34,115 bases of DNA, taken from NCBI GenBank assembly GCA_023128855.1, contig JAGMDE010000001.1:1-34115 (forward strand), read 5' to 3'. This stretch comes from Thermoplasmatales archaeon (lineage in GTDB: Archaea; Thermoplasmatota; E2; DHVEG-1). The notes below the pieces were generated by a model. The model did not search any database. It was not told the DNA's origin and saw only the letters and a list, made by a program, of their open reading frames with translations. This document shows, one piece after another, positions 5,352 to 33,570 of this stretch; the stretch's first letter is position 1; the number at the start of each line of letters is the position of its first letter. The position numbers and the translations under genes were made by a program.

Positions 5352-5483
5352 TACCTCTCCCACATAACCTGAATATGAAATAGCATATCTATATTAAATT
5401 ATTTTTCTTTTCCTTAAAACCCAAGAAAACATTAATAATACATGTTTGATTAGTGGTTTGAAATCATCTTACAGAGGAATAAA

Positions 5484-5903
5484 ATGAATAAGGATGAAGA
5501 ATTGAACAGATATATGGTTCAAATCGAACAATATAAAGAACAAATGAGCCAATTGGAAATGCAATTTCAATATCTCCATGCATCACTTGCTGATTATAAC
5601 AAAGCCAAGATGACATTGGAAAACTTGAGTAACACAGATACTGGATCTGAAGTATTACTCCCTATCGGTGGAGGTGCTTTTATAAGTGCCACTGCAAAAA
5701 ATACATCTAAAGTACTTATGGATATAGGGGGAGATCTTGTAACAGAAAAAACTCCAGAGGATGTGATTAAGAAAATTGATGAGAGACTAGAAAATCTAGA
5801 AAAAACACAAGTAAAAATGAATGAAATGATGCAAAATTTACAAAACGAAGCAGCTGAAATCTCTGCTAATGCGCAAAAATTAATTTCAGAACAACAAGGA
5901 TAA
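5484..5903 (+). CDS. pfdA: prefoldin alpha subunit
   Basis: 139 aa. Coiled-coil N- and C-terminal arms flank a central beta-hairpin region (EVLLPIGGGAFISATAKNTSKVLMDIGGDLVTE). It lies immediately upstream of ftsY, a common archaeal arrangement. Confidence 0.8.
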   Translation: MNKDEELNRYMVQIEQYKEQMSQLEMQFQYLHASLADYNKAKMTLENLSNTDTGSEVLLPIGGGAFISATAKNTSKVLMDIGGDLVTEKTPEDVIKKIDERLENLEKTQVKMNEMMQNLQNEAAEISANAQKLISEQQG

Positions 5904-7617: not shown

Positions 7618-8742
7618 TTAATTATCTATCTTGTAATTATCGATCATGTCCAATGAGTATTCTATATATTGATCTGTTGATCTATCCCAAATAATTTCTT
7701 CAATAGGTAATTCTGACTGATTAACGATAAAATTAATCATTTGTGGTTTTTGATTATTAATCTCTTCACTATATTCATCTAATCCAATTCTGATAGTATC
7801 ATCAACTATGAAAACAACTGTTAGGGAATTGTAAGGGTGATACGTTTTACCATCGTACAAAATTCGCCCATATTCATAATAAATATGATCAAAATCACCC
7901 CAAGAATAAAAATTCTCTCCAATTGAAAACCATGAGCTGTGATAAATACCATTTTCTTCAACAACTGTATAGTGATCAATACTAAGTGAGACTATTATTA
8001 AGAAAACAACTCCAAAAATCAACAATAAAAAACTAATGATTTTCAATACCTTTTTTCTTGATCTCAAGGATTTTTGTTTTCTTTTAGCCCAATAATTTTT
8101 TGTACCAAATTCGTTTTGATCTTTTTCATCATCTTTTGAAACGTCTATACTACTAATTGAATAATAAATCTCAGATCCATGTTCTTTACCCAACTTCGTT
8201 ATGTAGAACTTCTCATTAAAACAGGTAAGAGCTATTACAGCACAAAAAGTAATTGCAAAAATACCAACAGGTATTGCAAATGGGAGAAAGGATTCAATTA
8301 TCAAAAATTTTCCATCTCTTATGAGTGCATCTTGTATTACTCTGAAAAAAAAGTAAAAAAAAGCAAGTAAAGATAAAGTTAGAAAGCCGAAAATTGAAAG
8401 CCCAAATTTAAAACCAAGTCTCCAATGTACCCGACTCCAAACTATTTCTTCAGCTACTTCATTAACAGGCATAGTAAGATCTTTTTCAATAGACGTTAGC
8501 TGATTAAGAGGTGATGTTAATGCTAAATATTCTTCTGGATATCCGTCAACTTTGGAATAAGGGATTAATTCTACTAATAGTTTATTTCCTTCTTTGATAT
8601 CCAGCGTTGAAATGTTTTTAATTTTATAAATTAAGGTTTGAATTTCTTTGTCAACTTTTTCCTTTGTAGGAACTAGTCCTCTAAATATTATAATAATAAA
8701 AGCAACCGCAGGTGCTGATAATAAAAGCTCTACCAGCATCAT
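7618..8742 (-). CDS. polytopic membrane protein, unknown function
   Basis: 374 aa with several hydrophobic helices. Its start lies 1 nt after the stop of the upstream CBS gene, suggesting an operon. Confidence 0.7.
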   Translation of the reverse strand: MMLVELLLSAPAVAFIIIIFRGLVPTKEKVDKEIQTLIYKIKNISTLDIKEGNKLLVELIPYSKVDGYPEEYLALTSPLNQLTSIEKDLTMPVNEVAEEIVWSRVHWRLGFKFGLSIFGFLTLSLLAFFYFFFRVIQDALIRDGKFLIIESFLPFAIPVGIFAITFCAVIALTCFNEKFYITKLGKEHGSEIYYSISSIDVSKDDEKDQNEFGTKNYWAKRKQKSLRSRKKVLKIISFLLLIFGVVFLIIVSLSIDHYTVVEENGIYHSSWFSIGENFYSWGDFDHIYYEYGRILYDGKTYHPYNSLTVVFIVDDTIRIGLDEYSEEINNQKPQMINFIVNQSELPIEEIIWDRSTDQYIEYSLDMIDNYKIDN

Positions 8743-9237: not shown

Positions 9238-9753
9238 ATGGTAAAAATAAAGAAAAGAAATGAAATTTTAAACGATGTAATTCGGGATGGCAAGAAATAT
9301 CCAAAAGATTGGAAAGCAGTTTTTGGAAAGGATGATAAGAATTTATCTAAAGACTATTACATTTTCAATCCAAATACCGGTATTTATTTGTTGAAAGAGT
9401 ATGAAAAAAATCCTTACGAGATCAAGGGCATAGGTGGAAAGATAGCTAGACATGTTGACGAACACATTGAAGCAGAAGTATCAAAATATGCTGGTGACTT
9501 TGGTATTATCCAAGGAGATTTCAGAAGGATTTTAAAGAATTTAGAAAAAGGAGTTGAACCAAAAAAAATCTTTGATGCTGCAATTGAAGGCAAAAAAAAT
9601 CTAGGTCTTAGCATGCCTGTTAGAGGTCATGCTTCTTCATCAAAAGATGTTTTTGAGAATATTCATAGTAATTATTCAACTAAACAGAAAAAAGTAGATA
9701 AAAAATTTGAAGAAATGGCCACTGAAGATGGGCTTTATAACTCATATGGATAA
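9238..9753 (+). CDS. hypothetical Lys-rich protein (171 aa)
   Basis: ORF track, with AAGGAA upstream. No recognised motif. The 3' end overlaps the trpS 3' end by 12 nt. Confidence 0.5.
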   Translation: MVKIKKRNEILNDVIRDGKKYPKDWKAVFGKDDKNLSKDYYIFNPNTGIYLLKEYEKNPYEIKGIGGKIARHVDEHIEAEVSKYAGDFGIIQGDFRRILKNLEKGVEPKKIFDAAIEGKKNLGLSMPVRGHASSSKDVFENIHSNYSTKQKKVDKKFEEMATEDGLYNSYG

Positions 9754-11061
9754 GTATTTCTTTATTTTACCCTCTGCAGCTTTTCTTTTTTCTTGGATGT
9801 CCAAAAGTAGTTTTTCCATTAGTTGTGCGGCATATTTTTTACATTCACCACACATTTGTTTACCATTTTTACAAGATGTGTAAATATCATATAATTCTTT
9901 GTCATCTTCTATAAGATGGTATAAGAATAACTCATAAACTACGCATTCGTCTGGTTTCCCACCATGTTTCTTTTGTTCTTCTAGTGTTACTGCTCCTCCT
10001 GTCTTTGAATGCATGATTTTCTTTGTTGCATCTTTAGGTGTATCTGTCAGAAAGATTGCGCTTTCTGGTTTTGAAGAGGACATTTTATCGCCTGTAAGTC
10101 CTGTTATAAAACGATGAAACGTGGCTGATGGTGGTAAGAATCCATAGCCTCCCAATTTTGTCTCTGTTTTTGCCAACGCAATATCTATTTTTTGGATATC
10201 TTCTTTTGTAGCATCTTCGATGTAGATAGCTTTGTAATCAGTGATTCTTTTCAATTTGTTGAACTTAAGTGATTTCAATGTCTTTTCTGCGTTGTCTAAC
10301 AGTTTGCTAACATCTTTATCAACTTTTACAAAAACACCAATTTTTTTGTCTTTTGTAACTGTAACATTAAATAATCGATGCGCTTGTGAGATATCTCGAC
10401 TAAGTCTAATATGCGGGTCTTGATCGACTCCAACTGGAACTAATGTTGGTCGGTTTCCTCCATATTTTTTTAGTTGAACATGAAGTATATCTCCTGTTTG
10501 GATTAGTGGTGAAAAAACATGTGCCATGTTACACGATCCATTAAATCCATAGGTTGCCTGCATTTGTGACCAGTTAACCTTTTTACCTAAAATATAAGCC
10601 AAGTCTTTTACATCTTCATTTTTAGATTGAAAATATATTCTGCATTTTTCTGGTTTTAAACCTAATGCAATATAACTTGGAATGTACTCCTTTAATGCAT
10701 ATTCTTTTGTTTGTTCTAACGTATGGCCTCGTGTTGCAAATGCTTCTATGTCAGCTATGGCTATGTTTATATCTGCACCTATACTCTGATAGTAAATGAC
10801 TTCATCGATAACCATTTTATGTCCCAAATGCATCTTTCCAGAGGGCATTAATCCTGTAAGTATTGCCCATGGTTTCTTTTTAGCTACTGCATCTTGAATA
10901 AGTTGAAATCCTCTATGGCCAAAAACTATGCCTCTGCGTAATAGTTTATGTGGGTTTGGTAAATCTTTCCAGGTTTTATTTGAAAATTCTTCTATTCCAA
11001 ACTCATCTCGTAGTTTTGTATAATCTTGATAGGTTGTTGAACTCCAGGGATCAATTTTCAT
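9742..11061 (-). CDS. trpS: tryptophanyl-tRNA synthetase, archaeal/eukaryal type
   Basis: N-terminal DPWSS..YTKLRDEFGIEEF, class-I HIGH-like motif PSGKMHLGH, VGVDQDPHIRLSRD, and KMSKS-like KMSSSKP. See the findings for the apparent insertion and the C-terminal Cys cluster. Confidence 0.9.
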   Translation of the reverse strand: MKIDPWSSTTYQDYTKLRDEFGIEEFSNKTWKDLPNPHKLLRRGIVFGHRGFQLIQDAVAKKKPWAILTGLMPSGKMHLGHKMVIDEVIYYQSIGADINIAIADIEAFATRGHTLEQTKEYALKEYIPSYIALGLKPEKCRIYFQSKNEDVKDLAYILGKKVNWSQMQATYGFNGSCNMAHVFSPLIQTGDILHVQLKKYGGNRPTLVPVGVDQDPHIRLSRDISQAHRLFNVTVTKDKKIGVFVKVDKDVSKLLDNAEKTLKSLKFNKLKRITDYKAIYIEDATKEDIQKIDIALAKTETKLGGYGFLPPSATFHRFITGLTGDKMSSSKPESAIFLTDTPKDATKKIMHSKTGGAVTLEEQKKHGGKPDECVVYELFLYHLIEDDKELYDIYTSCKNGKQMCGECKKYAAQLMEKLLLDIQEKRKAAEGKIKKYLSI

Positions 11062-11120: not shown

Positions 11121-11175
11121 GCGCTGAGGAGAAGATTTAGGCTCGTATTTACTAGTAAAAAATCTCCTTTTCACC
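11121..11175. repeat. partial copy (locus A) of the X repeat module seen at 29311-29469 and 33013-33174
   Basis: gcgctgaggagaagatttaggctcgtatttactagtaaaaaatctcctttt aligns with cgctgaggaggagatattagcgtgtatttaccggtaaaaaaataatgttttctcct. It includes the palindrome TTTACTAGTAAA (11148-11159). Confidence 0.6.
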
Positions 11176-11257: not shown

Positions 11258-11283
11258 CCACTATATCAGGATTCGAACATAAA
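11258..11283 (-). other. tRNA T-arm/acceptor-like fragment (not an intact tRNA)
   Basis: The minus strand reads TTTATGTTCGAATCCTGATATAGTGG, with the GTTCGAATC T-loop signature. The T-stem has one mismatch, and I could not build an upstream D or anticodon arm. Confidence 0.5.
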
Positions 11284-11414: not shown

Positions 11415-12797
11415 ATGAAAGTTGTTCTAACAACATCCCCAACAAGAATTAAAGGAACAAAAGTTCAACCATTAGGTTTAGCTTATCTTGCAGCATCTGC
11501 TGAACAAGCTGGACATAAGATAAAAATAATTGATGCAATGATTATGAATTACAGTTTTGAAGACATCCATAAAGAAATCGCACATTTCGACCCGGATGTG
11601 CTTGGAGCAACCTCTTGGACACAAAATATTTACGATGTCCTAAAAATAATTAAAAGATCTAAGGAAAATAATCCTAATTGTATCAGCATTCTTGGTGGTT
11701 CGCATTCATCACTTATGGCAAAAGATATTCTAAACGAAAATGAATTTGTTGATATAATTGTCAGAGGGGAAGGTGAAAAAACATTTGTAGAAATTCTTGA
11801 AAAAATTGAAAAAAACCAAGATTATTCAGTTGTTGATGGAATCACCTTTAGAAATAATGGAAAAGTAATTGAAAATAAAAATAGAGAAAACATAAAAGAT
11901 TTAGATATTTTGCCTCTTCCAGCATATCATCTTCTCCCAATGAAAGAGTATACTGTTAAGTATAGGCCATTTGACTATGAAATGGTGGGTGATTTAGGGG
12001 ATCAATACTGTGCTATTTCTACATGTAGAGGATGCCCTTACAACTGTATTTTTTGCTCATCTCGAGCTTTATGGGGAAGAAATTGGAGGGCAAGAAGTGC
12101 ACAAAATGTCATTGAAGAAATCAAGATTTTAAATGATAAATACAAGGTAAAGGTAATTGACTTTATGGATGATACTGGTACGATAGACAAAAAACGGATT
12201 TTAAAAATATGCAAATTAATTAAAAAAGAAAATTTTGATGTTTTATGGACTGCAGGTACAAGAGTAGATCTTTTTGATAAAGAAATTGCAAAATCCTTTA
12301 AAACAGCAGGATGTAGCTTAGCAAGGCTCGCTCCTGAATCAGGAAATCAACGTTCCCTTGATTTTTTACAAAAAAGTTTCACAATAGAAGATGTTAAAAG
12401 AGCTATAAAAATCGCAAAAGATGCAGAATTGAATACTAGTGGAAATTTCATAATTGGAATTCCTGGTGAAAACAGAAAAATGATTAACCAAACAATCAGC
12501 TTTGCTAAAAAACTTAACCTAACTCATACAACTTTTTCAATTTTAGATCCACTTCCCGGAACAAAAATTTATGATATTGCCGTACAAAATAATCTCTTAT
12601 TAACAAAAGATTGGTCAAAATATACACCAATGCATTCTGTTTTAAAGCTAAAAAACTTCAACCCGAAAGAACTAGAAAAGCTTTTAATAAAAGCTTTTCT
12701 AATTTGCTGTTGGATCAATCCAAGAAAGTCCCCCAAAATATTGAAAAGAGATCTAATTCAGCTATTAAAATTCAAAAAACGTCATTTGAATGTTTGA
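11415..12797 (+). CDS. cobalamin(B12)-binding-domain radical SAM enzyme (class B)
   Basis: The N-terminal Rossmann-like B12-binding region (KVVLTTSP...LGLAYLAASAEQAGHKIKIID...ILGGSHSS) is followed by the radical SAM cluster motif CRGCPYNCIFC (CxxxCxxC). A TATA-like TTTTAAATAT lies ~15-20 nt upstream of the ATG. Confidence 0.9.
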   Translation: MKVVLTTSPTRIKGTKVQPLGLAYLAASAEQAGHKIKIIDAMIMNYSFEDIHKEIAHFDPDVLGATSWTQNIYDVLKIIKRSKENNPNCISILGGSHSSLMAKDILNENEFVDIIVRGEGEKTFVEILEKIEKNQDYSVVDGITFRNNGKVIENKNRENIKDLDILPLPAYHLLPMKEYTVKYRPFDYEMVGDLGDQYCAISTCRGCPYNCIFCSSRALWGRNWRARSAQNVIEEIKILNDKYKVKVIDFMDDTGTIDKKRILKICKLIKKENFDVLWTAGTRVDLFDKEIAKSFKTAGCSLARLAPESGNQRSLDFLQKSFTIEDVKRAIKIAKDAELNTSGNFIIGIPGENRKMINQTISFAKKLNLTHTTFSILDPLPGTKIYDIAVQNNLLLTKDWSKYTPMHSVLKLKNFNPKELEKLLIKAFLICCWINPRKSPKILKRDLIQLLKFKKRHLNV

Positions 12798-14599
12798 TCG
12801 ATATGATAAAATAAATCCTTATACATTTGTACAGCATGATATTCAGCATGTTCAATGTCAAATGGATTTTCTGATAAATCAAATCTTATCTTTGAATTAT
12901 TTTCAATAGATTTTTCTATAAGTTCAATAAACATTTTATAAAAGTTAGGATTATATTTTGTTAGAGATAAAGATTTGAAAAATGATGAGTCTATATTTGG
13001 TTTAAATTTTAAGTCTAACAAAGCCTGAAAATATTTTTTTGCATCTATAGGTTTGTTAATAGCCATATATAAGAATGGTAGAATGTGAAATAAATTTATT
13101 AGTTGACTACAATTTCCTCTATTCACATAAAAGTTATAGTAGTAAAGATCAGTTGATAAATATTTTTCTAGATTTTCAATTAAAGCTCTTATTTGATTTT
13201 TATTTTTAATCCAATTATCGTCTTTTATATAGTTGTAAAAGTCTTTTATGCCATAAAGATAGTTAATTCTTTCCTGAAAACCATTAATTTTTACAATTTT
13301 TTTAATAAAAAGATCAATATCAGTAGAAACAGAAGGAATAACTACTCTAACTGTAGGAAATTGTAAGATTTTATGAGTATAGTCTACCACCTGTAAATCC
13401 CATTTATTTTTTTTACAAATATCAGTAATTCTCTTAACATCATCAAAACTGTCGTTATTTTCCACACTATTTAAAGTATCAAAATCAATAATTTTCCCCT
13501 TCTCTAAAAAAGAAAGATTTCCATAGAAATCATAATATCTGGTAAAGTATTTGTAAGGTTTATCTACACCAAAATACTCTTTTCCAAGTTTTTTTACCCA
13601 AATATCATATAAAACTTTAGCGGCCTTTTGTTCAAAAACTTCTTTTCTATCTAAGTGAACAGTTTGAAAATATTCTACGAAACATCTCATTATAGCTTCA
13701 TGCAGATTGATATGAGCGCCTGCATTTACTCTTTTATAATTCCGTTCTTTTATCAATTTATTACTGCTATTTTTCAAGTTCTTATTTATAAATAAAACTC
13801 CTATAACAGGTAGACCTTTTGCTAAGGAAAAGTCCTTAATTATTACATCGATATTTAAAGAATCAAAAAGCTTAATGCAATCAAGTATTTGTTTGTTTTT
13901 TATGGATTCTGGATCGATAGTTGAGCTTTGAGTTTTTTCTGAAAATAATCTACTTGCAGCATAACGTTCAAAAATCTCAAAGGATGCTTGTGCGATGGCT
14001 TCTTCATGGGTATTACCTGCAGCTATACCATTTGATAAACTAATTAGTTCAACTAAATGTATCGGAAGTTTGATATATTTTTCATCCACAATTGAATAAG
14101 CATCTACTATGCAATCCATAAACCCTTCGTTTTTATATAATTCAAATGTTTCTTTAGTCAAATTCTCTTGAAAAAATGTATTAACGTATTGAAAATTAGT
14201 GCATAAACTATTGACCTCTTTTGAAAACCCTTTCAAAAAGTTTCTACTATTAACATTTTTTAATATTTTTTCATATTCCTCAGCATTTTCAGATAATGGA
14301 ATTTTTATCTCTAAAAAACATGCAGAAAACCTTTCAGCAAGCTCAGCATATGCACTTGCTTTAGCAAGATTGCTAGAAAAGCCTTTTCCATGTTGAGCCC
14401 ACCCCAATATATCTATTAAAGCACTTCCAACAAATATTTTAAAGTCTGAAGAGCTTATATTATCTTCTTTATAATTAATATCAAAACCAATTTTTTTAAA
14501 ACCATTTTTTATTCTTTTTATTGTATTTTTAGGAACATCACATTTATAATTTTGATATATTTTTGGAGACTGAGAAAGTTTCATTAAAACCATTATCAA
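12782..14599 (-). CDS. YcaO-domain protein (ATP-dependent amide backbone-activating enzyme family) with an uncharacterised ~270-aa C-terminal extension
   Basis: YcaO-type motifs GKGFSSNLAKASAYAELAERFSA and SNGIAAGNTHEEAIAQASFEIFERYA. Its 3' end overlaps the radical SAM gene by 16 nt (convergent). Confidence 0.85.
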   Translation of the reverse strand: MIMVLMKLSQSPKIYQNYKCDVPKNTIKRIKNGFKKIGFDINYKEDNISSSDFKIFVGSALIDILGWAQHGKGFSSNLAKASAYAELAERFSACFLEIKIPLSENAEEYEKILKNVNSRNFLKGFSKEVNSLCTNFQYVNTFFQENLTKETFELYKNEGFMDCIVDAYSIVDEKYIKLPIHLVELISLSNGIAAGNTHEEAIAQASFEIFERYAASRLFSEKTQSSTIDPESIKNKQILDCIKLFDSLNIDVIIKDFSLAKGLPVIGVLFINKNLKNSSNKLIKERNYKRVNAGAHINLHEAIMRCFVEYFQTVHLDRKEVFEQKAAKVLYDIWVKKLGKEYFGVDKPYKYFTRYYDFYGNLSFLEKGKIIDFDTLNSVENNDSFDDVKRITDICKKNKWDLQVVDYTHKILQFPTVRVVIPSVSTDIDLFIKKIVKINGFQERINYLYGIKDFYNYIKDDNWIKNKNQIRALIENLEKYLSTDLYYYNFYVNRGNCSQLINLFHILPFLYMAINKPIDAKKYFQALLDLKFKPNIDSSFFKSLSLTKYNPNFYKMFIELIEKSIENNSKIRFDLSENPFDIEHAEYHAVQMYKDLFYHIDQTFK

Positions 14600-17297: not shown

Positions 17298-17515
17298 ATG
17301 TTTCTACCTCTCCCTAATTATAAAATTAGCGTGATTGTAATATATTATTCTGTTTTAAATGTATTCATAACAATTGTTAAACGTAACAAAATGTTATAAA
17401 AAACCCTGGGTTTTTTGCATTCTGATTTCATTTACTTCAGTTTAGGCATCAACCTAAAACTCTCTCCAAAAATGTTAATATTTAAACATAGATTATTTGG
17501 AATAAATGGTGTATT

Positions 17516-19314: not shown

Positions 19315-19354
19315 AAAGATGTTATGAAATTGTAATATTGGAGGAGGTATAGAT

Positions 19355-19923: not shown

Positions 19924-20067
19924 TTATAGTTTTGGCATCAACCTAAAACTAACCTCTGAAGGTTGAGGTTCATCAACCCAGTCATCTAAACAACGCTGAA
20001 TCAGCCTGCGTGATTGCCAATATGAGTCGTGTTTATTTTTATATTTTTCAAGAAGTTTCAGTAGTTG
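19924..20067 (-). pseudogene. C-terminal remnant of a second copy of the multi-HTH gene (compare 25061..25783)
   Basis: Own translation of the open minus frame: QLLKLLEKYKNKHDSYWQSRRLIQRCLDDWVDEPQPSEVSFRLMPKL*. The intact gene reads ..CKLLDRFNKKHEDYCSSRRLIQRSIDDWIDDEASDYVGESFRLMQKQ*. There is no start codon, and an in-frame stop lies at 20068-20070. Confidence 0.7.
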
Positions 20068-20277
20068 CTAAGGTAAAAAATGAGGAAGAACGAGTCTCTA
20101 ACAGGAGAGAAAATGGTAAAAGGACTAAACGGTTTTTGACATGTTTGCTTATGTGAATCTGCGAAGGAATGATGTTTTTCTGTCAAAACCTATGAAAATG
20201 TTAATATGTTCATAGTTAGATGTAATATTGTATATAAGAACAGATGTTATGAATTGTAGATCGGAGGAGGCATAGAT
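20061..20277 (+). promoter_or_regulatory. conserved Q/P module: promoter-like region and leader of cassette unit 2
   Basis: Repeated at 14721-14860 (Q part) and 21873-21987 (P part). Contains aaaacctatgaaaatgttaatatgttcatagtt (TATA-like) and the leader gttatgaattgtagatcGGAGGAGGcatagatATG. Confidence 0.6.
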
Positions 20278-20631: not shown

Positions 20632-20677
20632 TCCAGAGAGTATGAGAGGTAAATTAAGTTTGAAGGAGGAAATAAAA

Positions 20678-21785
20678 ATGAGAAAGACCGCAATAGGACT
20701 AATTATGTTTTTGATAGGAATGTTTATCTTATCTACAATAAACATTAATTGCCTAGGGTATCAACACCCAGATGATGTAGTACACATAGAAATTCCACAA
20801 CAAGGTGAAATATGGCATAGGGGAGAAACCCATGAAATAAAATGGAGGTGCGTTGGTTCAAATGCTTTTCGTCCTACAAGATGGGATGTTTATCTGGTTT
20901 TTGCAGACACAAGGTCCCCACAATATGAACTTTATCAAAAAGAACGAATTAAGTTAGCAACTGTTGATTATGATTATAATTATGATGGAAACTACACATG
21001 GACAATACCATTGGACTTGCCTGAGTCGTCATCGGATGGGTATTCTTTTGATATTGAAGGAACTGATCGCTGGGATTTCTATGGATCTGGAGGCAGCATC
21101 TACATATTAGACCCAGGTGAAGAATTAGTCACTTCTCCCGATGATGAGTATTGGCTTTCAAGAGCAATTATGTCTGAAGCAAGTGTGGGAACACAACAGG
21201 AGCAAATAGCAGTTGGATGGTGTGTGCTAAATAGATTTAATGACGGACGGTTTGGAGATTCTTTGGAAGGAGTTATATATGACGGATTTGCATATAATCA
21301 ACAACCAACACAACAAATAAAAGAATTGGCAAACGAAATTCTTAAGGGATTACATCCTGATCCAACTGACGGAGCAGTATTTTTCTTTTCACCCAGGAGT
21401 ATGCCAAAAGAGGGAGAGAATACAACGGGTTATGATGTTGGCGGAGGACCTCATACTTACTGTGCCTGGAACATCAAATAGAGTCTATTTTCCATATTGG
21501 GCGAAACCGACTGAAGAAATAAACGAAAATACCCAATCATATCAAATCTTAACTGAATATGGTTATGGAGATATGGAATGGCGAGAATTAAATGGTATCA
21601 GAAATTGGTATTTCATGTTTTATCATCCAATATCGTCACAGTATGAATCTGAAGAGATCGGTGAGCCAAATGATGGTACAATCACAGGAACAAGTGCTGA
21701 CGGCACTCCTGGCTTTGAAATGATATTTGTTTTCTTGGCAGTAACATTGTTATTATTCTGGAAAAGAAAAAGTAAAAACCTATAG
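20678..21785 (+). pseudogene. SleB-like cell-wall hydrolase with Kre9/KNH-like N-domain and PGF-CTERM anchor, broken by a +1 frame change (ORFs 20678..21481 and 21432..21785)
   Basis: ORF1 has a signal peptide (MRKTAIGLIMFLIGMFIL), a beta-sandwich-like IEIPQQGEIWHRGETHEIKW, and a Hydrolase_2/SleB-like LSRAIMSEASVGTQQEQIAVGWCVLNRFNDGRFGDSLEGVIYDGFAYNQ. It stops at 21481. ORF2, in the next frame, has no signal peptide but ends in GTPGFEMIFVFLAVTLLLFWKRKSKNL (PGF-CTERM). Confidence 0.7.
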
Positions 21786-21987
21786 CTTTGGCATCAATCT
21801 AAAACTAGTGTCACCATTCTCCTTGCTTTGGTATCAACCTAAAACTCTCTCCAACATACTCGATTTAATAGAGAATCTGAGAAGGAAGGAGCTTTTACTG
21901 TTAAAACCTATAAAAAAATTAATATGTTCATAGTTCGATACAATATTGTCTATAAGAATAAATGTTGTAGATTGGGGAGGAAAAAAT
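21786..21987 (+). promoter_or_regulatory. two tandem boundary cores plus the conserved P module and leader of cassette unit 3
   Basis: GGCATCAATCTAAAACT (21790-21806) and GGTATCAACCTAAAACT (21830-21846). They are followed by gaatctgagaaggaagg...aaaacctataaaaaaattaatatgttcatagtt...GGGGAGGaaaaaatATG, which aligns with 20155-20277. Confidence 0.65.
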
Positions 21988-23921: not shown

Positions 23922-25058
23922 ATGAAAATAAAAATAATGCTTTTAATTGTAATTTTTCTAATTGTCACTCAAATAACAGTAGTAAGTGCATCACGAATCA
24001 TTGTTCAGAATGCTGATACTGTTTGGGAGACAATTCCTAAATATTCATCAGGTTTAACCCATGCAGCTACGGGTGTAACACCAAGAGTAAAAGCAGAATA
24101 TGCAAACTCGTTATCTCAGCATAATTTACAAGATTCGGAGAGTTTAAATCAGTTAGCCAGTGGAATTTCTTCGAGGATAATAGTAGAATATGCGAACTCT
24201 GTTTCTGATTTTGACTTGTATCGACCTGATTTTATACAGGCACCATCGTCAGAACCTGAAACGCAACCCGAAAATATTATTCCAACTGAAGATCCGTTCA
24301 ATTATCAAAGTGAATATGAACTAAATGAGGAGAAGTTGAGAGCTGAAGAAATAGAAGCTCTTCCAATTGTTATGAACTATGCAAATGAATACCATATAAG
24401 TCCTGCTTTGATAATGGCTATTATTAGGCAGGAAAGCAATTTTATTGCAAATGCAAATGGTAATGATTATATCGGCTACATGCAAGTAAGCTGGGATGCA
24501 GCTACCCATCAAAGTATAGAGGATATGACAAGTGACGAATATAAAGGAACAAAGAGTGATTGGTTGAGCGAAGGAAAAGATCCTGACCTAAATATTATGT
24601 ATGGTACTCGCTACCTCAGAATTTTAAATATTATTTTTGAAGAGGGAAAATTTTTATACGACTCAGTATCTGCAACCAAAGTCTCTGATATACAGGAGCG
24701 TTTAAATTTTGTATTAGCAGCCTACAACGGAGGACAAGGGAGAATAGCCAACGCTCAAAAGATTGCTAAAGAAAATAATAAAGATCCTACCAAATGGGAT
24801 GAAGTAAAAGAATATTTAGAGGAAGCTGGCGCTAATACTGCCAAAGCAATAGAAATTAAAAACTATGTATATGGGGTAATAAAAGGTAGAGATATAATAG
24901 ATGATGAACAGAGAGGTTATGAGTTTTTCTTAACGATTCGAGTTTTTCCATCTGATAAAGCATCAGACAGTGAAGAAGGTACTCCTGGATTTGAATTATT
25001 ATTTTTCATTGTAGCAATTGCACCTATCCTGTTATTAAAACGAAAAAGAAAAATATAA
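23922..25058 (+). CDS. lytic transglycosylase (SLT/GH23-like) domain protein with PGF-CTERM anchor
   Basis: Signal peptide. Three copies of an SRIIV(E/Q)(Y/N)A(N/D)SV-like motif. SLT signature ISPALIMAIIRQESNFIANANGNDYIGYMQV (candidate catalytic Glu codon at 24432-24434) and LAAYNGGQGRI. The C-terminus is EEGTPGFELLFFIVAIAPILLLKRKRKI. Confidence 0.85.
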   Translation: MKIKIMLLIVIFLIVTQITVVSASRIIVQNADTVWETIPKYSSGLTHAATGVTPRVKAEYANSLSQHNLQDSESLNQLASGISSRIIVEYANSVSDFDLYRPDFIQAPSSEPETQPENIIPTEDPFNYQSEYELNEEKLRAEEIEALPIVMNYANEYHISPALIMAIIRQESNFIANANGNDYIGYMQVSWDAATHQSIEDMTSDEYKGTKSDWLSEGKDPDLNIMYGTRYLRILNIIFEEGKFLYDSVSATKVSDIQERLNFVLAAYNGGQGRIANAQKIAKENNKDPTKWDEVKEYLEEAGANTAKAIEIKNYVYGVIKGRDIIDDEQRGYEFFLTIRVFPSDKASDSEEGTPGFELLFFIVAIAPILLLKRKRKI

Positions 25059-25060
25059 AT

Positions 25061-25783
25061 CTATTGTTTTTGCATCAACCTAAAACTCTCTCCGACATAA
25101 TCTGATGCTTCATCATCTATCCAATCATCAATAGAACGCTGAATTAGACGTCTACTACTGCAATAATCCTCATGTTTCTTGTTGAATCTGTCAAGAAGTT
25201 TACATTGATCTTTATTTGAGATTTTAATACCAAGCAGATAACTAAGCTCTTCTATTGCACTGTAACTTATGATTCGGTCGGGTTTCTCCTTGAAAAAGGC
25301 CTCGATAGTTTGCTCTTCTCGCCCAGGGAGATAAAAAAATGTTTTGTTCTTGTATCTTGCTGTTCTTATTATTGGAAACTTATGCTGCAAGATTCTTACA
25401 ACTTGCACATTAAAATCAGAAATCAAATAACCATCAGACATAAGCCTACATAGAAGCTTAATTCCATTCTTTCTAATAATATGATTTCCTTGAGACCTAT
25501 ACCCTTCTATTCCTCTTGTAAGATTATACACAGTGCCAATGTTCAAACCACATAGTTGCGCTGCTTCTGCCTTTGTATGTCCTTCTTTTATTGCTTTAAC
25601 TACTTTGTTTCTAGTTTCTATTGGGATTTTCTTTGATTGATAGAGATATTTGCATCTGTTGTATATCGTACTTCGATGAACATTGTATTTATCTGCAAGG
25701 TCTTTGACTTCATGCCCTTCATTGATAAGTTTAGCAATATGCTCACAGTCTTCTTTTGTAAGCTTTTTTCTTCTTGTCATCAT
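25061..25783 (-). CDS. multi-HTH DNA-binding protein (two resolvase/IS630-type HTH motifs plus a winged-helix-like region); only intact copy of a repeated gene
   Basis: HTH1 LTKEDCEHIAKLINEGHEVKDLADKYNVHRSTIYNRCK; HTH2 TRNKVVKAIKEGHTKAEAAQLCGLNIGTVYNLTRG. I could not recognise a DDE or recombinase catalytic motif. I trimmed the start to the ATG at 25783; the track uses a GTG at 25801. TTTTAAATA lies ~25 nt upstream on the minus strand. Confidence 0.8.
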   Translation of the reverse strand: MMTRRKKLTKEDCEHIAKLINEGHEVKDLADKYNVHRSTIYNRCKYLYQSKKIPIETRNKVVKAIKEGHTKAEAAQLCGLNIGTVYNLTRGIEGYRSQGNHIIRKNGIKLLCRLMSDGYLISDFNVQVVRILQHKFPIIRTARYKNKTFFYLPGREEQTIEAFFKEKPDRIISYSAIEELSYLLGIKISNKDQCKLLDRFNKKHEDYCSSRRLIQRSIDDWIDDEASDYVGESFRLMQKQ

Positions 25784-25839
25784 TTGAAAAAGCGAAAGCA
25801 CTAGTATTTAAAAGTGTTGAAAAGGACTGGGAAACTCTA

Positions 25840-29173: not shown

Positions 29174-29257
29174 AATGCGATGGCATTTCTTGTGTTTCCA
29201 GTTAAAGATGAATAAATAATGAAATATTTTTTATCTGTTTTTACAACCTAAAACTAT

Positions 29258-29282
29258 GCCTGTGTCGGGATTCGAACACAAT
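29258..29282 (-). other. tRNA T-arm/acceptor-like fragment (not an intact tRNA)
   Basis: The minus strand reads TTGTGTTCGAATCCCGACACAGGC. It lies 3 nt from a partial boundary core, ACAACCTAAAACT (29243-29255). Confidence 0.5.
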
Positions 29283-29310
29283 TTTACTAATAAATAGGAG
29301 CAGGGACCAT

Positions 29311-29536
29311 ATTTTACAAAAAGTTATGTTTTCTCCTGTTAAAATAATAAAAAAACGCTGAGGAGGAGATATTAGCGTGTATTTACCGGTAAAAAAATAA
29401 TGTTTTCTCCTGTTAGCAACTTTTTACAAAATTATACCAAAGATATTCTAGGTTGTGGTCAGATATACCTTTTTTCTAAATAAAATATAAAAAAATCCCG
29501 AGGCGGGCTCACCTTGCAAAAGTTAAGAGCCCGGCC
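29311..29536. repeat. composite repeat locus B: X module (29311-29469) plus GC-rich Y hairpin (29497-29536)
   Basis: X aligns along almost its full length with 33013-33174 (attttacaaaaagttatgttttctcctgt...cgctgaggaggagatatta..gtatttaccggtaaaaaaataatgttttctcctgt...). Y is cccgaggcgggctcaccttgcaaaagttaagagcccggcc, compared with 32969-33012. Confidence 0.75.
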
Positions 29537-29571
29537 TTATTTTCTCCTTAATAATTTATTTATTATCAAAG

Positions 29572-29598
29572 TTAATAGTTCATATGGTAAACTATTTA
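29572..29598. promoter_or_regulatory. inverted repeat, candidate MarR operator overlapping a TATA-like box
   Basis: AATAGTT (29574-29580), 9 nt, AACTATT (29590-29596). It extends to TTAATAGTT/AACTATTTA with one mismatch. It lies ~30 nt upstream of the marR-like ATG at 29625. Confidence 0.4.
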
Positions 29599-29624
29599 TA
29601 CATGCAACTGTTTTCGGGCGTCTT

Positions 29625-30065
29625 ATGGTATCTTATGTAAAAGAATTAATGGAAATATTTCAAACATTGCCACAAGATTTGAAAAAATTTGCACCTGACA
29701 GAACTAATGTTGGGAATAAGTTTGGTATTACAGGTGTTCAACTAATGACTCTGCATTTTGTTAAACATAATGATAATTGTAAAACTAGTGATATTGCAAA
29801 TTTCCTTTCAGTTTCTCCTCCAGACACAACAAGAATTGTAGAAACATTGGTAAAAAAAGGATTTGTTGAACGGATTAATGATGAGAAAGATCGCAGAATT
29901 ATACGGCTTAGAATAACAGGAGAGGGAAAAAAAGTTTTTGAGAACATAAGAAAAGAGTTAGCTTTATCTTTTTCAAAAATTTTGGAGAAAATTAACGAGC
30001 AAGATGCTAAAGCATTATTGAGAGGAATGAAAGCTTTATCTAATGCTTTAAAAGAACTGGATTAA
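29625..30065 (+). CDS. MarR-family transcriptional regulator
   Basis: 146 aa from the ATG at 29625. Winged-helix region LMTLHFVKHNDNCKTSDIANFLSVSPPDTTRIVETLVKKGFVERINDEKDRRIIRLRITGEGKKV. The track's TTG start at 29514 would read through the Y hairpin repeat. Confidence 0.85.
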   Translation: MVSYVKELMEIFQTLPQDLKKFAPDRTNVGNKFGITGVQLMTLHFVKHNDNCKTSDIANFLSVSPPDTTRIVETLVKKGFVERINDEKDRRIIRLRITGEGKKVFENIRKELALSFSKILEKINEQDAKALLRGMKALSNALKELD

Positions 30066-30100
30066 AAAAAAATTATAAATTATAACTAAGAGGCAAAAAT

Positions 30101-32863
30101 ATGATAATGGATCGATTTGGAAAAAAAGTCTCAAAATATCCAAAGGCAACAATTGCAATAGTTGTAGTAATAACTATGATTGCTATGATTTCTATGCAAA
30201 TATTTGGTAGTGAACAAGAGTTTTCAGAAGAATCATTTATGCCGGATATGGAAATTTCCCAAGCTTCTGATGCAATATCTGCAGATTTTACAACTACTGC
30301 TAGTGTTTCAATTCTTGTAAAATCAAGAAGTAATGATGTTTTAACTTCTAATAATCTTGTTGAAATGCTTCAAATTGAGAATGCTATCATTACCAATCCA
30401 GATATTATATCTGCTCTGAATATTCCTGAAATGCCGTCTGTTAATGTAATTTCTGTTGCAGATATAATTGCTCAAATGGCTTTGCTCCAGCAAGACATTA
30501 TTAATCCAACGATGGAACAGAAAATTTTTGCGATTCAAAGTATGAATGATAATCAAATAAAACTACTCATTAACGGCATATTAAGCTCAGATGAAACACC
30601 GATTGAAGTTAAAGGCATGTTTTCAATGATGCTAACAAAAGATTTTAATCTAGCTGATGACGAAGCAAAAGCAAAGGGTACAATGATTATAATTAGTCTA
30701 AATCCCTCGATAGTTGGAGGAAGCACCGGTATGTATTCATCAGGAGAATCCGGGCTTTCAAAAATAGAAAAAAGAATGGATGAAATCGTCAAGAACACTG
30801 AACTTGAGTTCACAGAGATGACTGTGATGGGATCAAGCATAATTATGGATGAGATAATGGATGCTGCCACTGAATCAATGGCAATATTATTACCGCTTGC
30901 TTTTACGTTGGTAATTATTATTTTAGCAATAATCTATAGAAGTGGAATAGATATGCTTTTCAGCCTTCTTGCATTAGTTTTTTCAATAATTTGGGTTTAT
31001 GGTTTTGGTTCTGCAATGGGTTATTCTTTTAATCCTATGACTACAGCTGTTCCTATTCTAATTGTTGGACTCGGAATTGACTATGGTATTCATATTACTA
31101 TGAGATATCGTGAAGAGATGAAGAGTAGTAAAAAGATTAACCAAGCAATAATTATTACTATTGCATCCGTGGGTATGGCATTACTGCTAGCTACAGTTAC
31201 AACTGTAGTATCGTTTCTTTCAAATTTAGCATCTCCAATAAGTACTATAGCAGAATTCGGGGTCTTATGTGCAGTTGGAATAATTGGTAGTTTTGTTACT
31301 ATGACTACATTTGTTCCAGCTTGTAAACAACTTAGAGATAATAGACGATTGAAAAAAGGTAAATTTGCAGAGATTGAATCTAGGAACAATAATTCAAATA
31401 ACAGAAAATCGAAGATAAAAAGTGCTGGTGTAGCGGTTCTTGATAAAACAATGGGTAGTGGTGCAGTTGCTGCTGAGCACCATCCAATTCCTGTTGTTAT
31501 TATTGTATCTTTAATTACAATAGGTGCTGTTTTTACAGCAATACAATTAGAAACAACTTTTAATTTTGAAGATTTTTTACCAGATGATTTGGATATATCA
31601 AAAGATCTAGATTATATGATGAATGAGTTTGGAATGAGTGGTGGGGGCGATGAAAAAGTCAATATTTTAGTAAAGGGTGATATCACTGACCCAGATATAT
31701 TGCGAGATATGGATGAAACGATAAATAACATGAAGGATGATAAATCAGTAATTAAAAACGCAGATGAACCAGATGTTCAATCAATATTGTCGGTTATGAA
31801 AGATTGGGCGACAAATACGACTCTTTATGGAATTCAAGATACAAGTTACGACCCAGAATTTGAAACTATATATTATAGTATTATGACAAGTGATGGTATA
31901 CCAAATCAAGATGCTACAAAAGAAGATATTGCTAATTTGTATAATTGGCTATATTCAAATCCACTATCTATAACGGCAGTTCAATATGTTTTACATCAAA
32001 CAGAGAACAACGATTATGATAGCACAGTTTTACGAATCTCTGTTAATGTAGATTCAAATGATAATGAAGCAATTGAAACACTTCACAATGATTTAAAAGA
32101 AGATAAAAAACCATTAGATAGTAGCGCAGATATTGCTATAGCTACGAGTGGCTCAATTTTAACAAAAGTTATCATGGATTCCTTAAACGAAAGTCAAATC
32201 CGCTCATTGATTATCACGATTATTTTATCTTTTATTGTTCTGACTATTGTATTTTGGTATAAATGGCGATCATTAATCCTTGGAATAATTACAATGACAC
32301 CTGTAATATTTTGTGTTGCATGGACCCTTGGAACAATGTATTTAGTAAACATCCCACTTAATATGATGACGATAACAATCGCATCTTTAACTATCGGTCT
32401 AGGAATCACATATGGGATACATATTACTCATAGGTTCCTTGAGGATCTTGAAAATAATAATTTAAAAAATAATCTTCTAATTCAAAAGAAAGTTCAATGC
32501 CCGAACTGTGGTAAAATTATAAGTGTTTCTGGTAAACCTGGGGAGGTTGTAAAAGTTACATGTCCATCATGTGCTACATTGGGAAAAGTCACATATAAAA
32601 AACCAACATCAACCACAGCATATATTGATGATGCATGTCGAAGTACAGTTACTCATACAGGCACTGCATTATTTGGAGCTGCTGCCACAACTATTTCTGG
32701 CTTTGGGTTACTTGTGTTTGCTACGATGCCACCCTTACAACAATTTGGAGGTATAACCGCGTTGACTATCTTATACAGCTTCTTAGCATCAGTGTTCATC
32801 CTTCCAACATTTCTAGTAGTATGGGCAAAATGGAAACAAAAAAATAATCGTATTAATTTTTAG
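30101..32863 (+). CDS. MMPL/RND-superfamily membrane transporter with an inserted zinc ribbon
   Basis: Two homologous halves, each with a large extracytoplasmic loop and a TM bundle. Paired motifs GLGIDYGIHITMRYREE and GLGITYGIHITHRFLED. A CPNCG...CPSC element (32498-32572) occurs only in the second half. Confidence 0.9.
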   Translation: MIMDRFGKKVSKYPKATIAIVVVITMIAMISMQIFGSEQEFSEESFMPDMEISQASDAISADFTTTASVSILVKSRSNDVLTSNNLVEMLQIENAIITNPDIISALNIPEMPSVNVISVADIIAQMALLQQDIINPTMEQKIFAIQSMNDNQIKLLINGILSSDETPIEVKGMFSMMLTKDFNLADDEAKAKGTMIIISLNPSIVGGSTGMYSSGESGLSKIEKRMDEIVKNTELEFTEMTVMGSSIIMDEIMDAATESMAILLPLAFTLVIIILAIIYRSGIDMLFSLLALVFSIIWVYGFGSAMGYSFNPMTTAVPILIVGLGIDYGIHITMRYREEMKSSKKINQAIIITIASVGMALLLATVTTVVSFLSNLASPISTIAEFGVLCAVGIIGSFVTMTTFVPACKQLRDNRRLKKGKFAEIESRNNNSNNRKSKIKSAGVAVLDKTMGSGAVAAEHHPIPVVIIVSLITIGAVFTAIQLETTFNFEDFLPDDLDISKDLDYMMNEFGMSGGGDEKVNILVKGDITDPDILRDMDETINNMKDDKSVIKNADEPDVQSILSVMKDWATNTTLYGIQDTSYDPEFETIYYSIMTSDGIPNQDATKEDIANLYNWLYSNPLSITAVQYVLHQTENNDYDSTVLRISVNVDSNDNEAIETLHNDLKEDKKPLDSSADIAIATSGSILTKVIMDSLNESQIRSLIITIILSFIVLTIVFWYKWRSLILGIITMTPVIFCVAWTLGTMYLVNIPLNMMTITIASLTIGLGITYGIHITHRFLEDLENNNLKNNLLIQKKVQCPNCGKIISVSGKPGEVVKVTCPSCATLGKVTYKKPTSTTAYIDDACRSTVTHTGTALFGAAATTISGFGLLVFATMPPLQQFGGITALTILYSFLASVFILPTFLVVWAKWKQKNNRINF

Positions 32864-32865
32864 CA

Positions 32866-32891
32866 CGCCTTTATCAGGATTCGAACCTAAG
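32866..32891 (-). other. tRNA T-arm/acceptor-like fragment (best-preserved of the three; not an intact tRNA)
   Basis: The minus strand reads CTTAGGTTCGAATCCTGATAAAGGCG. The T-stem TTAGG/CCTGA pairs, with one G-U. The required 5' acceptor strand GCCTTTA is absent ~48 nt upstream. Confidence 0.5.
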
Positions 32892-32968
32892 TTATTGCTT
32901 TCAAAGGTTGTTTAACCAATACTAGGTCGTTTCTCTCCTTAAAAACAAACTGTGCTAATTATTAACAA

Positions 32969-33174
32969 GGGGCCCGAGGCGGGCTTACCTTGCAAAAGTT
33001 AAAAGCCCGGCCATTTTTTACAAAAAGTTATGTTTTCTCCTGTAAAACAATAGTAAAATTACGCTGAGGGGGAGATATTAACCTGTATTTACCGGTAAAA
33101 AAATAATGTTTTCTCCTGTAAACTTGAATTGTAAAATTATAGCAGAGATATCCTGAGCTTTGGGAAGTGATACC
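32969..33174. repeat. composite repeat locus C: Y hairpin (32969-33012) directly followed by the X module (33013-33174)
   Basis: Same modules as locus B but in Y-X order. A degenerate X tail (tttctctccttaaaaacaaactgtgctaattat) precedes Y, suggesting tandem (Y-X)n ancestry. Confidence 0.75.
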
Positions 33175-33570
33175 TTACCATTTCATTTTCAATTTCTTTC
33201 GTTCAGCTCTTTCACTTTCTAATTCTGAAACTAGAGCATATAGTTGTTTCGTGATACTCTTAGATATATAAAATTTGTCTCTTTGTAGGCAATCTTTATC
33301 AAATACAGCATGTTTCTTATCCTTATCATAAATAATAGGATATAATTTACATCCGTCAGGTCTATTTTCATAAATCGTGCACATTATGCTACTATGAAAA
33401 ACACACCGTCCATCTTGATTTTTTAATTGCAACCATCCATCTCTTCCAGTAACAAAAAAATTAGTGTCAAACCCTAGTCGTTTTATTCGTTCTATATCTT
33501 GATATGATACGATCATGCTTGTATCTAAACAACATTGAATGCATTTATAATCTATGCAACAACTTTTCAT
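33175..33570 (-). CDS. YkgJ-family (UPF0153, CxxCxxCC) cysteine-cluster protein
   Basis: N-terminal CCIDYKCIQCC and the C-terminal signature GRCVFHSSIMCTIYENRPDGCKLYP. Confidence 0.8.
   Translation of the reverse strand: MKSCCIDYKCIQCCLDTSMIVSYQDIERIKRLGFDTNFFVTGRDGWLQLKNQDGRCVFHSSIMCTIYENRPDGCKLYPIIYDKDKKHAVFDKDCLQRDKFYISKSITKQLYALVSELESERAERKKLKMKW

Follow-up and report, generated by a model that had tools for sequence, protein, structure and literature searches.

Stacked tRNA 3′-end fragments around a marR–MMPL operon of a Thermoplasmatales archaeon as probable scars of integration at tRNA genes

Islander-type genomic islands (Reiter 1989; Williams 2002) are edged by direct repeats of a tRNA 3′ end that keep the orientation of the tRNA and break at a fixed sublocation of its gene (anticodon loop, T-loop or 3′ end); they contain an integrase gene (tyrosine or serine recombinase) and may form tandem arrays whose content varies among relatives. 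A regenerated tRNA gene accompanied by a displaced 3′ fragment is a known mark of the ends of such islands (PMC4383910, PMC9897764), and the T-loop is named as a recognised integrase crossover sublocation in a passage of a preprint that cites Williams 2002 (bioRxiv 10.1101/2020.11.02.365908). Here we describe a 34,115-nt stretch of DNA from a Thermoplasmatales archaeon (assembly GCA_023128855.1, contig JAGMDE010000001.1, positions 1–34,115; hereafter the window), in which an operon of marR and an MMPL transporter gene is bracketed by composite direct repeats made of tRNA-like fragments and of two modules, X and Y. Against this background, the window is read as carrying stacked, partly decayed junction scars, left where site-specific recombination struck the T-loops of three tRNA genes on the minus strand, a reading to which we give a probability of about 0.68. 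Each module contains the 3′ end of a tRNA gene, joined at the T-loop to DNA that would belong to an inserted element, here called the arm; the fragments with the motif GGATTCGAAC come from tRNA-Arg(GCG), X from the flank and last ~17 nt of tRNA-Ser(UGA), and Y from the last 14 nt of tRNA-His(GUG). The odd repeat architecture would then come down to ordinary scars of integration at tRNA genes, a feature of known type in a lineage that has received little study.

The window shares with Islander-type islands the direct repeats of a tRNA 3′ end in the orientation of the tRNA, the fixed break point, here the T-loop, and a content that varies among relatives, and at one related locus (L027) there is a tandem array of three tRNA-Arg ends; labels of the L0xx type denote contig loci fetched for comparison with the window. 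In elements of Thermococcales and Sulfolobales with SSV-type or pNOB8-type integrases (pTN3, TKV, PYG1) integration is likewise recorded by tRNA 3′ fragments, but these elements use att sites of 40–50 nt that extend as far as the anticodon loop, and their integrase gene is present whole or split, whereas the identity found here stops at the T-loop after only ~14–21 nt of tRNA, and neither an int(N) nor an int(C) remnant was detected. A further parallel is offered by archaeal integrase-driven recombination between tRNA genes, described as of low specificity for a Thermococcus integrase (Cossu et al. 2017, PMC5495485), which also yields tRNA-bounded rearrangements and would explain the mixed Arg, Ser and His junctions.

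Within the window, the two full X copies (29307–29471 and 33011–33176) are 82% identical over 169 nt (E 1.6e-42) and the two Y copies (29497–29543 and 32973–33019) 91% identical over 47 nt; a decayed X copy at 11122–11162 matches 29356–29396 at 80% over 41 nt by BLAST, making three X cores in 34 kb. The GGATTCGAAC T-arm motif occurs exactly three times, always on the plus strand (11269, 29268 and 32877), and the 14-mer ATCRGGATTCGAAC occurs twice, compared to 0.00 times expected from shuffles. The repeats are real and well beyond chance. All blocks lie in one orientation, in the order Y′ (a remnant)–X–Y upstream of the operon and Y–X downstream of it. The earlier note on this DNA had located these blocks, their order and the third, decayed copy near trpS correctly; it had taken X and Y to be separate modules of other than tRNA origin, descended from a tandem (Y–X)n array, and on both counts it is replaced here, both modules being pieces of tRNA 3′ ends and stacked junctions from three tRNA genes being the better reading of their order.

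No tRNA was found in the window by ARAGORN, run in neither intron nor permuted mode, and no Rfam family reached its gathering threshold there, the tRNA model scoring only 14.4 bits at 32866–32908 (gathering 29); this and the other Rfam hits at E ≤ 10 (tracrRNA, SpF41) were rejected as sub-threshold chance matches. ARAGORN revealed no hidden tRNA at the modules of any fetched locus either, inspection showed no 5′ acceptor strand that could pair with any of the fragments, and neither a cloverleaf nor the complementary leader and trailer halves of a functional, split, permuted or intron-bearing tRNA were present. Therefore, intact tRNAs had not been misfolded when the earlier note reported fragments that extend into no full cloverleaf, and no complete attL/attR pair is seen in the window. 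Its statement that the window holds no integrase agrees with the Pfam scan of the open reading frames (ORFs), in which no integrase or recombinase domain was encoded.

The fragments carrying the GGATTCGAAC motif resemble tRNA-Arg(GCG), and are listed with the arm that follows the last of them.

11258–11283, minus strand: first fragment, a decayed tRNA 3′ end, ATCAGGATTCGAAC, matching the T-arm region of the L027 tRNA-Arg(GCG) at 13/14 positions
29258–29277, minus strand: second fragment, tRNA-Arg(GCG) positions 72 to ~53, truncated at the T-loop, 17/20 to the intact L027 tRNA-Arg
32866–32887, minus strand: third fragment, a decayed tRNA-Arg(GCG) 3′ end 2 nt past the MMPL stop, 26/33 including flank
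32888–32969, unstranded: arm between the third fragment and Y, 83% identical to L025/L026, compared to 63% at fourfold sites of the adjacent MMPL gene

The MMPL protein homologues were traced to their contigs and the sequences after the stop codon were compared. In L027 an intact minus-strand tRNA-Arg(GCG) abuts the MMPL stop, exactly in the place of the third fragment; in L028, L029, L024 and L008 only CGCCCGCATCGGGATT(CGAAC) is found at that site, followed by unrelated arms; and in the window, L025 and L016 the tRNA-Arg end after MMPL has decayed further. L027 and L028, which are one sample assembled twice, show 100% identity over 5 kb as far as GACGCCCGCATCGGGATT, past which it drops to ~30%. 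Behind the second fragment lie the arm TTTTACTAATAAA and then the Y-end remnant (~29297–29310), and fragment plus arm are 97% identical over 37 nt to the fragment after the L024 MMPL stop. From this graded series and these matches, the three acceptor arms can be traced to one sequence, TGCGGGC, eroded mostly by G/C-to-A/T changes. The acceptor heptamers TATAGTG, CACAGGC and TAAAGGC had been read correctly in the earlier note, but they would represent AT-biased decay of one tRNA-Arg end and not three tRNAs. Judged by these alignments, the three fragments are decayed copies of a single tRNA, Arg(GCG), tentatively so for the first, which is probably of this type.

Two of the related loci carry several such ends. 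L027 contains two tRNA-Arg 3′ fragments (2322 and 4971) with a common arm, in addition to the intact gene (8350–8426), the three ends lying in tandem orientation and separating segments of 2.6 and 3.4 kb. L028 has a 2.65-kb segment between two tRNA-Arg fragments (8298–8315 and ~10960), each of which adjoins the palindrome ATGTGACGTCA(C/T)AT.

The X module was resolved by means of a scan of JGI metagenomes with the X-core pattern, in which 13 loci were found, one of them (L003) syntenic with the window. L003 runs from trpS through one gene, an X core with its tail, the gene of a CxxCxxCC protein and a sequence called Xa to an intact minus-strand tRNA-Ser(UGA). Since Xa runs into the intact tRNA-Ser in L003, it is the natural 3′ flank of that gene, and the parts of X in the window are as follows.

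11121–11168, minus strand: decayed X core (nhmmer E 2.6e-12 against the X-core profile; BLAST 80% over 41 nt), with a tRNA-Ser(UGA)-type 3′ end, CGCTGAGG, at 11122–11129 and then the arm palindrome TTTACTAGTAAA at 11148–11159
29307–29354, minus strand: upstream Xa, a copy of the tRNA-Ser(UGA) 3′ flank, 88% over 60 nt to L003 3293–3352, the DNA just downstream of, and reaching into, the intact tRNA-Ser
29355–29413, minus strand: upstream X core, the last 15–17 nt of tRNA-Ser(UGA), ACGCTGAGGAGGAGAT, then an arm in which the palindrome TTTACCGGTAAA and another Xa-like repeat are found
29414–29475, unstranded: tail2, part of the arm, in which the blocks CCAAAGATAT and ATACCTT are conserved; its homologues are tail3 and the arms of L005, L009, L014, L016 and L029
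33011–33060, minus strand: downstream Xa, which again copies the flank 3′ of tRNA-Ser and matches L003 3291–3358 at 90% over 69 nt
33061–33119, minus strand: downstream X core, the last 15–17 nt of tRNA-Ser(UGA), then an arm (nhmmer E 4e-15)
33120–33177, unstranded: tail3, an arm that abuts and overlaps the stop codon of the CxxCxxCC gene and is kept beside that gene in L003, L005, L016 and L020

The start of the X core, ACGCTGAGGGGGAGATTT (17–18 nt), corresponds to tRNA-Ser positions 73 to 57, and the 3′ 17-mer of tRNA-Ser is matched with two mismatches in the upstream core (TATCTCCTCCTCAGCGT) and with one in the downstream core (TATCTCCCCCTCAGCGT). The X copies follow L003 through Xa and ACGCTGAGGGGGAGAT(TT) and diverge past it. 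The same base marks the limit between L005 and L003, which are 100% identical over 580 nt up to it and 23% identical past it, so that this break also falls in the T-loop. A second group of X cores (L006, L007, L010, L011, L012 and L015) carries CGCTGAGGGAGGGATTCGAACCC, with the T-loop sequence intact, before an arm, GTATTTACYGGTAAAAA, that is common to both groups.

At loci of this second group a small ribbon-helix-helix (RHH) ORF with a CcdA-like N-terminus (E 5e-7 and 3e-4) runs in frame into the tRNA-Ser-like unit (L006 ~1070–1240, minus strand; L007 2431–2551, minus strand; L011 ~330–495 and L015 ~5458–5620), and its C-terminal end, ...TLREGFEPVFTGKN, is the same in three independent loci; the ORF could be a remnant of a gene that once spanned the attachment site. 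In sequencing run X5 one contig skips 29170–29308, which contains the second Arg fragment and its arm, and joins the terminator-like hairpin behind the upstream gene straight to Xa, with weak support (depth 3.4, 21-nt anchor).

The Y module has two copies, both related to tRNA-His(GUG).

29497–29543, minus strand: upstream Y, 11 nt of the tRNA-His(GUG) 3′ end, CCCGAGGCGGG (29497–29507), then a GC-rich hairpin arm and a T-run
32970–33019, minus strand: downstream Y, the last 14 nt of tRNA-His(GUG), GGGCCCGAGGCGGG (32970–32983), which stop at the T-loop; the hairpin arm and a T-run follow

GGGCCCGAGGCGGG is identical to the tRNA-His gene of L025 at 14/14 positions. In L025 itself, the likeness of the Y copy after MMPL to the intact tRNA-His extends into a 7-nt flank, TTAGTAT (22/24 in total), and the intact gene lies 2.9 kb beyond Y, with four hydrogenase-like genes between them. 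Fragments of the 3′ end of tRNA-Leu(CAG) were detected too (L025 13006 and L028 11094); the control tRNAs Asn, Val and Thr were without such fragments in the fetched loci. The upstream Y hairpin is predicted at -19.2 kcal/mol (z = -2.6), with one compensatory C-G to U-A change between the two copies, and with its T-run it may act as a terminator. A reading of Y and X as small peptides (MAGLLTFAR, MFSPV...) was rejected on inspection, start and frame not being conserved.

Taken by class, the Arg, Ser, His and Leu junctions all break between tRNA positions ~61 and 53, at the T-loop, and fragments are paired with the intact gene in L003 (Ser), L025 (His and Leu) and L027 (Arg), the window having fragments only. 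The scars would delimit variable segments of the window, namely 11.1–29.3 kb, the marR–MMPL pair and the junction with the CxxCxxCC gene, with the variable region starting right after trpS. The genes concerned are these.

9742–11061, minus strand: trpS, among the housekeeping genes left of 11.1 kb
29625–30065, plus strand: marR, 146 aa, Pfam MarR; a 146-aa MarR is found in all relatives
30101–32863, plus strand: MMPL transporter of the HAE3 family of RND transporters (Pfam MMPL; NCBIfam TIGR00921 HAE3, E 1.6e-83)
33175–33570, minus strand: CxxCxxCC Fe-S protein gene (PF03692), convergent with the MMPL gene

Next to trpS, the homology of the window with L003 and L014 ends at ~11108, and the decayed X core begins at 11121; in L014 an X core lies 247 nt from trpS. 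The interval from trpS to the CxxCxxCC gene measures 22 kb in the window vs. 1.6 kb in L003, where the CxxCxxCC gene sits between the X core and the intact tRNA-Ser(UGA). In L016, whose CxxCxxCC protein is 88% identical, 10 kb of transporter genes edged by tRNA-like fragments separate MMPL from the CxxCxxCC gene, at the place where the window has the 310-nt composite. Bracketed DNA is thus present or absent at the same sites between L027 and L028, between L003 and L005, and between the window and L003, L014 and L016. Identical flanks in related strains would, by the earlier note, have spoken against its reading; the relatives do not have identical flanks, and the content between the scars varies. 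Its suggestion of scars of integration at tRNA genes, with borders at ~11.1–11.3, 29.3 and 32.9 kb, is borne out by intact Arg, Ser and His genes at the corresponding sites of relatives, by the T-loop breaks in two contig pairs and by the variable gene content. These borders are those of a hypervariable region in an uncultured, globally distributed group of sediment archaea.

Upstream of marR, a tRNA-Arg 3′ fragment is found in L027 and L029 also, so that the marR–MMPL pair is bracketed by direct repeats of the tRNA-Arg end in three lineages (window, L027 and L029). In more distant relatives (79–80% MMPL identity) the pair occurs without adjoining tRNA or fragments. No empty site, lacking marR–MMPL between the transglutaminase-like and CxxCxxCC genes, was found; L020 was considered and rejected, its transglutaminase-domain gene not being an orthologue. 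The closest named homologue of the MMPL protein is that of Thermoplasmatales archaeon SG8-52-1. The start of marR is corrected here to ATG 29625, against the TTG 29514 of the gene callers, which lies inside the Y hairpin, because the MarR of every relative is 146 aa long and begins with the equivalent ATG, behind a conserved upstream region. A conserved inverted repeat, AATAGTT-N-AACTATT, precedes the gene at ~29574–29597 and is probably an autoregulatory operator plus promoter.

The comparisons show the tRNA origin of the modules, their T-loop breakpoints and common orientation, and the strain-level presence/absence polymorphism at the same sites in relatives. Since no integrase was found in the window or beside any junction of the fetched loci, the recombinase step is one that we infer, with a tyrosine-type integrase as the presumed maker of the junctions, and the order of events has the same standing; the conserved arms would be putative att-arm binding sites. 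Most likely, the scars are passive DNA today, although the 82–91% identical direct copies could mediate loss or duplication of marR–MMPL.

Several features, most of them departures from Islander-type islands, weigh against this reading. Pfam scans of the window ORFs and of the neighbours of junctions in the fetched loci revealed no domain of an integrase or other recombinase, the only related hits being a double-helix-turn-helix (HTH) protein and, elsewhere, DDE transposases; the search near the junctions yielded only transposases, a restriction-modification module, secreted proteins and the CcdA-like RHH protein. There is no intact tRNA in the window, and the bracketed segments, with one exception of 18 kb, are of unusually small size (0.3–3.5 kb) and hold ordinary genes. 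Fragments of three tRNAs lie inside one block of 310 nt, a pattern that does not arise from plain serial integration at a single tRNA; by analogy, this mixing could be due to a cassette-type mechanism or to tRNA genes recombining with low specificity. The ~50-nt flank Xa has been duplicated along with the tRNA-Ser end, which requires a long identity segment or a segmental duplication. Finally, the arm after MMPL together with Y is 83–86% identical between the window and L025, compared to 63% at fourfold sites of MMPL, which hints at some function. As to free elements, the X-core pattern had 0 matches in IMG/VR, and 16-mers of the tRNA-Arg and tRNA-Ser ends gave 19 matches each that were discarded as chance, being in GC-rich unrelated contigs.

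The earlier note had also considered a tRNA-derived repeat family, and X, Y and the arms might be non-autonomous mobile repeats of this origin, similar to miniature inverted-repeat transposable elements (MITEs), short interspersed nuclear elements (SINEs) or "miniature integrative elements", that spread through the intergenic DNA of these Thermoplasmata and flank the efflux operon by chance; we consider this unlikely. It would fit the abundance of the repeats, as part of the X stretch is present in 20 sequencing runs from many studies, all of them cold-seep and marine-sediment metagenomes, and pieces of X are 8–27-fold over-represented in sediment metagenomes, with many different flanks. The most over-represented piece is tail2, with a Logan depth of 275–458 compared to a baseline of 14–17 in run X1. 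Copies also occur in unrelated contexts, such as behind a TATA-binding protein gene (L002) or near transposases (L009), and the arm blocks GTATTTACYRGTAAAAA and CCAAAGATAT are kept across diverged copies. However, metagenome depth mixes strains and species and pools many populations, so it is not a copy number per genome, and in 185,579 species-representative genomes the strict X-core pattern was found in one contig only, the loose pattern being that of the 13 JGI contigs. The ends of the X and Y copies show neither terminal inverted repeats nor a target duplication of fixed length, the tRNA part of the duplication being of variable length (11–24 nt), with as much as 50 nt of flank in addition. 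Moreover, all copies begin at the exact 3′ end of a tRNA and correspond to a tRNA gene resident at the syntenic site. A CRISPR-like nature of the 35-nt high-depth piece at 29434–29468 was considered and dropped, since its "different flanks" are mutually related (ACAATACATCAAAC) and the piece consequently belongs to a longer repeat variant. Intergenic "repeats" in metagenome-assembled genomes (MAGs) of this kind should be compared with the tRNA 3′ ends of the lineage before they are called new elements.

It is rather improbable that the modules, or the arm and Y after MMPL, are functional RNAs, either minus-strand tRNA-like small RNAs or a plus-strand 3′ untranslated region or terminator. The conservation of the arm after MMPL and Y over fourfold sites, the single compensatory pair between the Y copies, the T-run behind Y and the fold z-score of its upstream copy would all suit such a role, and on the plus strand the X core can fold into a 14-bp hairpin that includes G-U pairs. 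Against it, the z-scores of the X folds are only -0.1 to -1.0, the alignment fold has a weak consensus on both strands and a two-sided pair change on neither, no Rfam family reaches threshold, the acceptor stems cannot form, and no RNA runs are among those listed as holding the stretch.

Integron gene cassettes, which are bounded by attC sites and moved by an integrase acting in trans, have been reported in archaeal MAGs. A comparable system can be imagined here, in which one- to four-gene modules without a recombinase would move among the T-loops of tRNA-Arg, -Ser, -His and -Leu by means of a recombinase supplied in trans that recognises the arms TTTACYRGTAAA, TGACGTCA and CCAAAGATAT; we hold this as a speculative reading of low probability. 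The candidate cassettes would be marR–MMPL, the CxxCxxCC gene, the set of four hydrogenase-like genes, the gene of a 994-aa surface protein and a dehalogenase-like gene. As in integrons, recombinase-less segments of one to four genes are each edged by a similar repeat in the same orientation; in contrast to them, the repeats are tRNA 3′ ends and not attC hairpins with R''/L''–L'/R' boxes, no IntI or attI was seen, and gene orientation is mixed. Inspection of the modules revealed no GTTRRRY/RYYYAAC box pair, and no integrase was found. Casposons also insert at tRNA 3′ ends and form tandem arrays, but here there are no terminal inverted repeats, the repeat length is not fixed at 14–15 bp, and no Cas1 domain was found in the scanned ORFs. 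If true, such a system would be an archaeal, tRNA-based analogue of integron cassettes, and active mobility of small recombinase-less segments would mean a new route of gene exchange in archaea, including that of transporters like the MMPL efflux pair.

Decay in place of an ancestral Arg-His-Ser tRNA cluster after segmental duplication, with no integration, is very unlikely. The three tRNA-derived pieces in one orientation within 310 nt could be expected from it, as could the substitutions in the fragments, mostly G/C to A/T as in pseudogene decay, and by eye the X copies of L014 and L009 resemble the anticodon arm of tRNA-Ser. Yet the similarity to tRNA ends at the T-loop, and the third Arg fragment and the X core were rejected as full-length decayed tRNAs, alignment scores beyond that point being no higher than those of shuffles; the change from 100% to random identity in near-identical contig pairs indicates recent replacement and not slow decay, and gene content between copies differs among relatives.

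Mis-assembly across repeats is the least credible explanation, for although the Logan unitigs of run X1 break inside X (29341/29445 and 33038/33122), so that no single long independent contig bridges each X core, two separately deposited contigs have the same arrangement, exact X1 unitigs link unique DNA to each side of both loci with short unitigs tiling the core, the two X copies differ at 18% of positions, and the same junction types recur in many independent assemblies. These loci are nevertheless break points of MAG assemblies. The window itself has a matching contig in a third-party cold-seep MAG (GCA_030640375.1, DAOWJJ010000111.1), a near relative carries the label "Thermoplasmata archaeon CSMAG_2056", and the base composition of the DNA is ~27–37% G+C.

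The gene content at 11.4–29.1 kb is accessory, comprising B12-radical SAM and YcaO genes, a caspase-domain surface protein, paralogous lipoproteins, SleB-like and SLT-like hydrolases, the double-HTH protein and a transglutaminase-core protein. Just inside the left border of the variable region, the B12-binding radical SAM and YcaO-domain genes are convergent (11415–14599) and may form a peptide-modification module. A second repeat family is found at 17438–17476, 19927–20260, 21783–21975 and 25064–25201; its fragments match the double-HTH gene (25061–25801, minus strand) at its 3′ end and in the DNA downstream of it, and they recur behind successive lipoprotein genes. The signal-peptide regions of the lipoprotein genes at 19343, 20266 and 21976 are 77–85% identical, and the family looks as if a unit of gene and spacer had been duplicated in tandem.

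A SleB-like cell-wall hydrolase and an SLT lytic transglycosylase are encoded in this archaeon (20642–21481, 21432–21785 and 23922–25058). The SLT protein and the small protein of 21432–21785 end with a PGF-type anchor, which scores 22.9 and 24.5 bits against the Heimdall-CTERM model (cut-off 24), and the SleB-like and SLT proteins may be secreted enzymes directed against bacterial peptidoglycan.

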